Positions 47,583 to 52,338 of a DNA stretch of 64,000 nucleotides are shown here, one piece after another. The notes under the pieces are model-generated. The model saw nothing but the letters and a program-made list of their open reading frames with translations, had not been told where the DNA came from and searched no databases. The stretch is from the NCBI RefSeq assembly GCF_058153355.1, contig NZ_CM177019.1. One strand, given 5' to 3'. The translations under genes and the position numbers were made by a program. The stretch's first letter is position 1; each line of letters opens with the position of its first letter.

Positions 47583-48740
47583 TTGAAACGTAGTCTGCTT
47601 TTTTCTGCCGTGCTTTGTGCGGCGTTATTGACCCCCGTCCATGCGGCGCAGCCGATCACTGAACCGGAGTTCGCCTCTGATATTGTCGATCGTTATGCCG
47701 ATCATATTTTTTATGGCAGTGGTGCCACGGGGATGGCGCTGGTTGTTATCGACGGTAACCAGCGCGTCTTTCGCAGTTATGGCGAAACGCGCCCGGGTAA
47801 TAACGTTCGCCCGCAGCTGGATTCGGTCGTGCGTATTGCTTCGCTCACCAAGCTAATGACCAGTGAGTTGCTGGTGAAATTGCTCGACCAGGGGACCGTG
47901 AAGTTAAACGATCCGCTAAGTAAATATGCTCCACCAGGCGCACGCGTGCCGACTTACAATGGCACGCCTATTACCCTGGTGAATCTGGCAACCCATACCA
48001 GTGCCTTGCCACGTGAACAGCCGGGAGGCGCGGCACATCGTCCAGTGTTTGTCTGGCCAACGCGCGAGCAACGCTGGAAATACCTTTCTACGGCGAAGCT
48101 GAAAGCCGCGCCAGGCAGTCAGGCGGCATATTCTAACCTTGCGTTCGACCTGCTGGCAGATGCACTGGCGAATGCTTCCGGCAAGCCTTATACCCAGTTG
48201 TTTGAAGAGCAGATTACCCGTCCATTGGGGATGAAAGACACCACCTACACCCCCTCGCCGGACCAGTGCCGCCGTTTAATGGTTGCAGAGCGCGGTGCCA
48301 GTCCATGCAATAACACGCTGGCGGCAATTGGCAGCGGCGGAGTCTATTCCACGCCTGGCGATATGATGCGCTGGATGCAGCAGTATTTGTCATCTGATTT
48401 TTATCAGCGCAGTAATCAGGCGGATCGCATGCAGACGTTGATTTATCAGCGCGCGCAGTTTACGAAAGTGATTGGCATGGATGTCCCCGGCAAAGCGGAT
48501 GCGCTTGGTTTAGGCTGGGTATATATGGCCCCGAAAGAGGGTCGTCCGGGGATTATTCAGAAGACAGGTGGTGGTGGCGGTTTCATTACCTATATGGCGA
48601 TGATCCCGCAGAAGAATATTGGCGCGTTTGTGGTGGTTACTCGTTCGCCATTGACGCGCTTTAAAAATATGAGCGATGGCATCAATGACCTGGTGACCGA
48701 ACTGAGCGGGAATAAACCGTTGGTCATCCCCGCGTCCTGA
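47583..48740 (+). CDS. ampH: Class C beta-lactamase-like penicillin-binding protein AmpH
   Basis: 385-aa ORF (TTG-initiated frame MKRSLLFSAVLCAALLTPVHA signal peptide); SxxK motif (SLTK). Confidence 0.9.
   Translation: MKRSLLFSAVLCAALLTPVHAAQPITEPEFASDIVDRYADHIFYGSGATGMALVVIDGNQRVFRSYGETRPGNNVRPQLDSVVRIASLTKLMTSELLVKLLDQGTVKLNDPLSKYAPPGARVPTYNGTPITLVNLATHTSALPREQPGGAAHRPVFVWPTREQRWKYLSTAKLKAAPGSQAAYSNLAFDLLADALANASGKPYTQLFEEQITRPLGMKDTTYTPSPDQCRRLMVAERGASPCNNTLAAIGSGGVYSTPGDMMRWMQQYLSSDFYQRSNQADRMQTLIYQRAQFTKVIGMDVPGKADALGLGWVYMAPKEGRPGIIQKTGGGGGFITYMAMIPQKNIGAFVVVTRSPLTRFKNMSDGINDLVTELSGNKPLVIPAS

Positions 48741-49427
<687 letters not shown>

Positions 49428-49449: not shown

Positions 49450-52338
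<2,889 letters not shown>

Follow-up and report, generated by a model that had tools for sequence, protein, structure and literature searches.

A hairpin in the ampH transcript encoded within the last codons of the convergent gene iprA

Where do two convergent transcripts end when their genes leave no space between them? The question is raised by ampH and yaiV, now called iprA, in the stretch of DNA analyzed here (referred to below as the window), which comprises 64,000 nucleotides of contig NZ_CM177019.1 from NCBI RefSeq assembly GCF_058153355.1. The two genes meet at the sequence ...ccgcgtccTGA/TTAatactc..., in which the iprA TAA, read as its reverse complement, comes immediately after the TGA of ampH. 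The original prediction, made from the letters of the sequence and a list of its open reading frames, held that this arrangement leaves no room for separate terminators, so that transcripts from either gene must run into the coding region of the other, and it saw in this a chance for antisense interference between a gene for a cell-wall enzyme and one for a regulator.

Gene ends and conservation of the junction

The claim that the stop codons adjoin directly is borne out by the sequence, by the list of open reading frames and by the RefSeq annotation of E. coli K-12 MG1655. In that annotation iprA (394506..395129, plus strand) and ampH (395130..396287, minus strand) also have zero spacing, K-12 coordinates being obtained as 443870 minus the window coordinate. 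The same abutment is present in a PGAP-annotated relative with 99.1% identity. With no intergenic space between the stops, each transcript does enter the coding region of its partner, as had been stated. The finding named as a possible refutation, a yaiV end that had been mis-called, fails because homology confirms the C-terminus. Near-full-length IprA homologues are mostly 207 aa long, and when 16 of them from about 10 genera (51-82% identity) were aligned, the C-terminus ...LP-x-[ED]-Y was found in 16/16, with an invariant last Tyr. Additionally, the Pfam winged-helix profile HTH_46 is covered in full (1-68/68) by residues 138-205. AmpH could be aligned up to residue 385, its last, in nearly all related loci.

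The frame and the C-terminus of yaiV were thus right in the original prediction, but its 5' end was 45 nt too long. The minus-strand ORF in the list runs over 48741..49409 and encodes 222 aa, whereas K-12 annotation and homologues place the true iprA start at Met16 of this ORF, at window position 49364. The upstream ATG at 49409, which lies inside the 5' arm of a strong upstream hairpin, is not the iprA start.

The locus was found in 5420 of 5426 complete E. coli genomes, nearly all of which are 95-99% identical to the segment. A further scan, using one genome per species, yielded 80 loci from other species in the genera Escherichia, Citrobacter, Salmonella, Raoultella, Enterobacter, Kluyvera, Leclercia, Lelliottia, Trabulsiella, Yokenella, Buttiauxella and others. 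In 80/80 of these loci ampH is convergent and lies right after iprA. Judged from the distances between the stop codons (Table 1), zero spacing is the state of Escherichia and not special per se; the old and conserved trait is the absence of a spacer.

Table 1. Features at the ampH-iprA junction (positions in the window) and stop-to-stop distances in the 80 loci from other species
Feature	Position	Strand	Evidence and remarks
ampH CDS	47583..48740	+	385 aa, TTG start, TGA stop 48738-48740; ORF; Pfam Beta-lactamase PF00144 (E 5e-68); annotated ampH in K-12 and relatives
iprA (yaiV) CDS	48741..49364	-	207 aa; TAA stop, reading tta on the plus strand at 48741-48743; K-12 annotation, homologue lengths, C-terminus alignment, Pfam
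Abutting stop codons TGA/TTA	48738..48743	.	Sequence; identical in K-12 annotation
RNA hairpin, ampH-sense	48750..48786	+	Inside iprA codons 193-205; folding energy, RNAalifold, covariation, recoding null, G-U asymmetry
Core stem of hairpin	48753-48760 : 48776-48783	+	
Inner stem of hairpin	48761-48765 : 48770-48774	+	
Loop of hairpin	48766-48769	+	
U-rich tract UUUAUUCAUUU after hairpin	48783..48793	+	Sequence; 8 U in 11; contains mapped K-12 ampH 3' end (window 48791)
Second, weaker hairpin, last 12 ampH codons	48706..48733	.	Folds on both strands, better in iprA sense
Stop-to-stop distance -4 (shared TTAA-type tetramer) to +5 nt			66/80 loci
Stop-to-stop distance 13 to 17 nt			6/80 loci
Stop-to-stop distance 39 to 44 nt			2/80 loci
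Stop-to-stop distance 77 or more nt			6/80 loci; one gene frameshifted or truncated

Structure of the hairpin and selection on it

Beginning 10 nt past the ampH stop, the ampH-sense RNA can form a stem-loop of 14-16 bp with the sequence UGAAGGCAAACGGUUG-AUAG-CAACC-A-GUUUGCCUUUA, the stem of which is AU-rich at its base and carries a bulge. Its folding energy is -21.2 kcal/mol, compared to -8.5 +/- 2.4 kcal/mol in dinucleotide shuffles (z -5.4). Energy, conservation and covariation agree on a stable, GC-containing stem-loop downstream of the stop codon, as a terminator would have. The hairpin and the U-rich stretch behind it together fall within iprA codons 191-205 (...EMNKGKLVAINRLPS...), and the same bases encode the C-terminal part of the IprA winged-helix domain (...KGKLVAINRLPS...). 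The candidate terminator is therefore located within a reading frame of the partner gene that is confirmed by homology and Pfam. An Rfam scan of 48400-49100 on both strands gave no match at E values up to 1. A simple terminator scan picked up the inner 5-bp stem alone and missed the full stem because its rules disallow bulges and long stems. A d'Aubenton-Carafa-type score, computed with an unverified formula, was borderline or negative; its value varies with the chosen stem end, and it is given no weight here.

The hairpin was compared in a gapless alignment of 80 sequences, 78 of them distinct Enterobacteriaceae. Over the 78 distinct sequences, pairing in the 8-bp core holds for 622 of 624 cells (Watson-Crick in 603, G-U in 19), a count that overstates the number of independent events because of shared ancestry. 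Compensatory double changes were detected at pair 13:43 (AU/GC 45/33) and at pair 19:37 (AU/GC 57/20), together with one change of CG to UA at 16:40, and the covarying pairs are third positions of Pro204/Lys194, Arg202/Lys196 and Leu203/Gly195. RNAalifold finds the core stem unprompted. When pair 19:37 was followed on a neighbour-joining tree of AmpH, at least 8-11 changes were required, among the states AU, GC and GU only, which means that the covariation is not a single inherited event. G-U pairs that are valid only in the ampH sense outnumber A-C combinations, which are G-U pairs in the iprA sense; the ratio is 19 to 1 for the core and 145 to 6 over all 16 pairs. This bias is not imposed by the genetic code, since enumeration identified four core sites that permit a synonymous transition toward either kind of wobble. 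These comparisons of sequences show that pairing is selected on the ampH-sense strand only.

Synonymous sites point in the same direction. When the last 17 iprA codons were recoded synonymously, the ampH-sense fold had a mean of -8.9 kcal/mol versus an observed median of -19.4 kcal/mol, and no more than 1% of the recodings reach the observed stability in 57 of 79 loci. Normalized codon entropy, calculated over conserved degenerate columns, is 0.43 in the hairpin codons versus 0.83 in the remaining iprA columns (Mann-Whitney p 2.5e-5). Gly195 is encoded by GGC in 73/75 and Leu203 by TTG in 67/75, while GGA, GGC and GGG occur at Gly187 in about equal shares. The last 22 ampH codons, used as a control, do not have excess structure on either strand. 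The recoding null, the synonymous diversity and the compensatory changes thus all indicate selection on RNA structure beyond what the protein needs.

The U-tract UUUAUUCAUUU follows the stem in Escherichia, Citrobacter and Salmonella. The group of Enterobacter, Lelliottia and Leclercia lacks it and has the tail CCGGCUCAUAUUGAU, with a stem that is kept and even stronger (-20 to -26 kcal/mol). Because this latter group retains the stem without the U-tract, the conserved feature is the stem and not a canonical intrinsic terminator, and in some genera the stem may act mainly as a structure that protects the 3' end after termination elsewhere. In Buttiauxella, a 39-nt spacer contains a canonical bidirectional terminator (AAAGAAAGCAGGCCGGUGCACCGACCUGCAUUUUUCAUUU; about 3616-3654 of locus L082, Buttiauxella brennerae) and the in-gene hairpin has decayed to -5.6 kcal/mol, a stability equaled by 215 of 300 recodings. 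As far as the sequences go, this decay fits the view that the hairpin is needed only where it is the terminator. Salmonella enterica subsp. diarizonae does not fit as neatly with the hairpin being the sole terminator: its 44-nt spacer has an ampH hairpin of its own followed by AUUUUUGUUA (about 3625-3668 of locus L025), and the in-gene stem is retained.

Transcript ends and competing explanations

Published transcript data place an ampH 3' end directly behind the hairpin. TRS Supplementary Data 3 (PMC10687069) lists a 'Primary' ampH terminus for K-12 MG1655 in LB at 395076-395085 on the minus strand, with 395079 as the dominant position and adjusted p values of 4.8e-6, 2.4e-10 and 2.5e-10 in three RNAtag-seq libraries; the row apparently derives from the LB RNAtag-seq sheet. 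The upstream sequence folded in that study is exactly this hairpin (-20.9 kcal/mol), its re-analysis of earlier data gave an ampH end at 395078, and the ampH 3' UTR is listed as 52 nt (PMC10687069). K-12 position 395079 corresponds to window 48791, about 51 nt past the ampH stop, so that the ampH mRNA overlaps iprA by about 51 nt. The end had been predicted from the sequence at 395075-395083 before the published 395079 was found, and it lies 8 nt past the GC core, within the 7-9 nt past the stem at which a terminator would leave its 3' end in vivo.

The argument that separate terminators have no room is therefore valid for the intergenic space, but not for ampH, whose hairpin and U-rich tract are contained in the last iprA codons. 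Similarly, the read-through of ampH into iprA exists as an overlap, but in K-12 it is short and defined by the mapped 3' end and not open-ended. The check by 3'-end mapping that had been proposed could be made on published K-12 data and yielded the ampH end, but none for iprA among the termini listed in Adams et al. 2021 or in the TRS data.

Other published sources were searched as well. The curated Term-seq set of Adams et al. 2021 has no 3' end at the ampH/iprA junction, SMRT-Cappable-seq gives no ampH termination site and only ampH start sites (396318, 396319 and 396363), and the TERMITe supplements have no entry for the junction. No ProQ or Hfq CLIP literature mentioning ampH was found. 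From their BCM experiment, Adams et al. 2021 report a region of Rho termination at 395316 on the ampH strand, where reads upstream/downstream in 800-nt windows were 56/57 untreated and 98/247 with BCM, all of them low counts. These reads suggest that part of the transcription on the ampH strand extends across iprA and that Rho limits it. Expression of either gene is weak in the data sets read. A minor ampH-strand 3' end at 395130 (window 48740, the last base of the ampH stop) is present in 2/3 libraries (PMC10687069) and lies 7 nt past the second, weaker hairpin, which has a folding energy of -13.8 kcal/mol in K-12. An RNA ending at this position would leave the ribosome at its extreme 3' end, and the signal may reflect a pause, processing or an artefact.

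The second hairpin was considered as a reciprocal terminator for iprA and rejected, as its median of -16.5 kcal/mol compares with -15.7 kcal/mol for synonymous recodings; it was also rejected as a conserved element, not being conserved beyond Escherichia and Citrobacter. No conserved iprA terminator within ampH was found across the related loci. The hairpin shared with ampH is unlikely to end iprA because it precedes the iprA stop, where ribosomes would keep it open, and because its tail in that direction is U-poor. In the iprA-sense RNA 100-300 nt beyond the iprA stop, the sequence is C-rich and G-poor (C/G 2.0 and 1.65). Rho loading sites tend to be C-rich and G-poor, and iprA transcripts probably end by Rho inside antisense ampH.

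The explanation favored here, with a probability of roughly 0.8, is that ampH and iprA are an old convergent pair without a spacer in which iprA contains the end signal of the ampH message and the iprA side is probably ended by Rho. RNA polymerase on ampH would pass the TGA and transcribe the stem-loop and then UUUAUUCAUUU, and the ampH mRNA would end about 51 nt beyond the stop, with the hairpin serving as an intrinsic terminator, as a stem protecting the 3' end, or as both. The iprA codons would be held to those synonymous choices that keep the opposite-strand RNA paired. Transcripts of iprA, lacking an equivalent conserved signal, would continue as antisense RNA into the end of ampH, and Rho would most likely stop them once they are untranslated. 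The ampH end is presumably made by termination and not by trimming, and regulatory cross-talk between ampH and iprA would be a conceivable consequence.

The mapped ampH end could also be made by exonuclease trimming to the stem, with termination further downstream. The hairpin would then be a protective 3' stem: transcription of ampH would go on until it is stopped by Rho, and 3'-to-5' exonucleases would trim the RNA back to the stem. This is a possible but doubtful account. It would explain why the stem is kept even in genera without the U-tract, and it agrees with the BCM-sensitive (Rho) region on the ampH strand across the junction (Adams et al. 2021) and with the statement, cited by Adams et al. 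2021 from Dar and Sorek 2018, that Rho-terminated transcripts are typically processed by 3'-to-5' exonucleases. However, the E. coli end, 8 nt past the GC core within UUUAUUCAU, is at the position expected for intrinsic termination, and with low read counts the rise under BCM could stem from other antisense starts. That one hairpin ends both genes, as a bidirectional or collision-type terminator that positions head-on RNA polymerases, is quite unlikely. The stem does fold in the iprA sense too (-14.8 to -18 kcal/mol), a separate iprA terminator was not found, and stem-loop-dependent bidirectional termination at convergent pairs is on record (bioRxiv 10.1101/2022.10.23.513370). However, an iprA RNA ending at a stem that precedes its stop codon would have no stop codon, translating ribosomes would presumably hold the stem unfolded, and weak expression of both genes would make collisions rare. 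The G-U pattern (145 to 6) shows selection on the ampH-sense strand only and the iprA-sense tail is not U-rich, so the structure does not appear to work on both strands; among the termini listed, only the ampH end, and not those of both transcripts, is at this stem-loop.

A putative antisense device, in which read-through of one gene lowers expression of the other by interference or by cleavage of the RNA duplex and so links wall remodeling to an oxidative-stress regulator, is improbable. Such a device could draw on the obligatory mRNA overlap of at least 51 nt, on a spacer-free layout that is conserved across the family and on the Rho-sensitive transcription of the ampH strand over iprA (Adams et al. 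2021), but the conserved hairpin limits the overlap and does not extend it, spacing ranges between -4 and +17, and both genes survive where a spacer has been inserted. Little probability is also given to a putative tunable barrier, in which the hairpin in the last iprA codons would govern ampH read-through, set by Rho or stress, that silences iprA from the antisense strand; if true, this would couple peptidoglycan remodeling to a hydrogen-peroxide-resistance regulator across the Enterobacteriaceae. The remaining alternative is that the inverted repeat is an accident of the IprA peptide (KGKL...RLP) or a DNA palindrome, such as a protein-binding site, and has no RNA function. The residues involved are invariant in IprA, and any coding of the peptide has low-level pairing, as the mean of the recoded sequences illustrates. 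However, the observed stability is far beyond that of synonymous recodings, variation is specifically suppressed at synonymous sites, the AU/GC covariation and the strand-specific G-U pairs suit RNA pairing and not a fixed DNA half-site, and an RNA 3' end maps right past the repeat. This reading is largely refuted and has a very small probability.

Relation to known systems and observations around the locus

The ampH-iprA junction belongs to the kind in which a terminator lies in the CDS of the convergent partner. In E. coli, Lillo and Krakauer 2007 (PMC2174442) found 58 overlaps between convergent genes; a Rho-independent terminator in the partner CDS serves one gene in 19 of these and both genes in 2. 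Like those cases, the pair is convergent and spacer-free and has a hairpin and U-tract for ampH in the iprA CDS, with dual coding; unlike them, ampH and iprA abut without overlapping. The resemblance to a canonical intrinsic terminator consists of a stable ampH stem-loop soon after the stop, a U-rich stretch and a 3' end 8 nt past the GC core. The differences are the interrupted U-tract (UUUAUUCAUUU), which several genera with the stem do not have, the AU-rich base, the bulge and the location in coding sequence. The bidirectional terminators of Ju et al. 2019, as described in bioRxiv 10.1101/2022.10.23.513370, likewise involve convergent genes with overlapping 3' ends and a boundary stem-loop. 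Measured against that description, the ampH stem differs in being wholly inside iprA and before its stop, in being selected on one strand and in having no mapped iprA end at the stem. The trimmed 3' stem-loops of Dar and Sorek 2018, as cited by Adams et al. 2021, are matched by the stem without a U-tract in some genera and by the Rho-sensitive junction, whereas ampH of E. coli departs from that cited description in its U-rich tail and in an end position that suits direct termination.

Several elements were already on record: the reference annotation shows the abutment, a published table lists the ampH 3' end, and terminators in the CDS of a convergent neighbor have been counted in E. coli. What is added here is a quantified example of dual coding, which is incremental and introduces no new mechanism. 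One 37-nt stretch both encodes the C-terminal part of a winged helix and specifies a strand-specific hairpin, kept by synonymous-site selection in many genera. It would follow that recoding, deleting or tagging the iprA C-terminus also alters formation of the ampH 3' end, and that low synonymous variation at the 3' end of a gene can flag a signal on the opposite strand. The case has little importance for biology at large.

Other observations were made in the surroundings of the junction. An intact autotransporter ORF of 962 aa (yaiT/ehaB family) adjoins iprA at window 49450-52338 on the minus strand, and the K-12 copy is a pseudogene split by IS3. For the segment 47400-49600 the best E. coli match is 99.1% identical and most genomes are 95-99% identical, and IprA is 100% identical to a protein of 'Escherichia sp. 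E1V33' and 99.5% identical to one of 'Escherichia sp. MOD1-EC7003'. Because of these whole-segment identities and protein matches, the window may represent a divergent or cryptic Escherichia lineage and not mainstream E. coli. One ENA metagenome contig (4908 bp) encodes a protein of 259 aa, P0070, that joins IprA residues 1-126 to the last 133 residues of AmpH, both halves being identical to the versions in the window. Since iprA and ampH lie on opposite strands, this fusion requires an inversion, and P0070 is most likely a chimeric assembly.

A hairpin of 13 bp (AAUAAUGCCCGUCAAGGAUUUGACGGGCAUUA; window 49378-49412, minus strand) lies upstream of iprA and ends 18 nt before the ATG, just before the AAGGA RBS. 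Its stem is absent in Enterobacter and kept in Escherichia, Citrobacter, Salmonella, Raoultella, Trabulsiella, Yokenella and Pseudocitrobacter, and a reported CyuR site is located upstream of it. Cysteine is reported to raise iprA expression by about 4.5 log2. The TRS data include a very strong terminus labeled '5' UTR iprA' at K-12 394492(+) (p 2.6e-208; PMC10687069), which corresponds to window 49378, 4 nt past the 13-bp stem. This leader hairpin could act as an attenuator, give rise to a stable short RNA or mark where read-through from the autotransporter gene ends.
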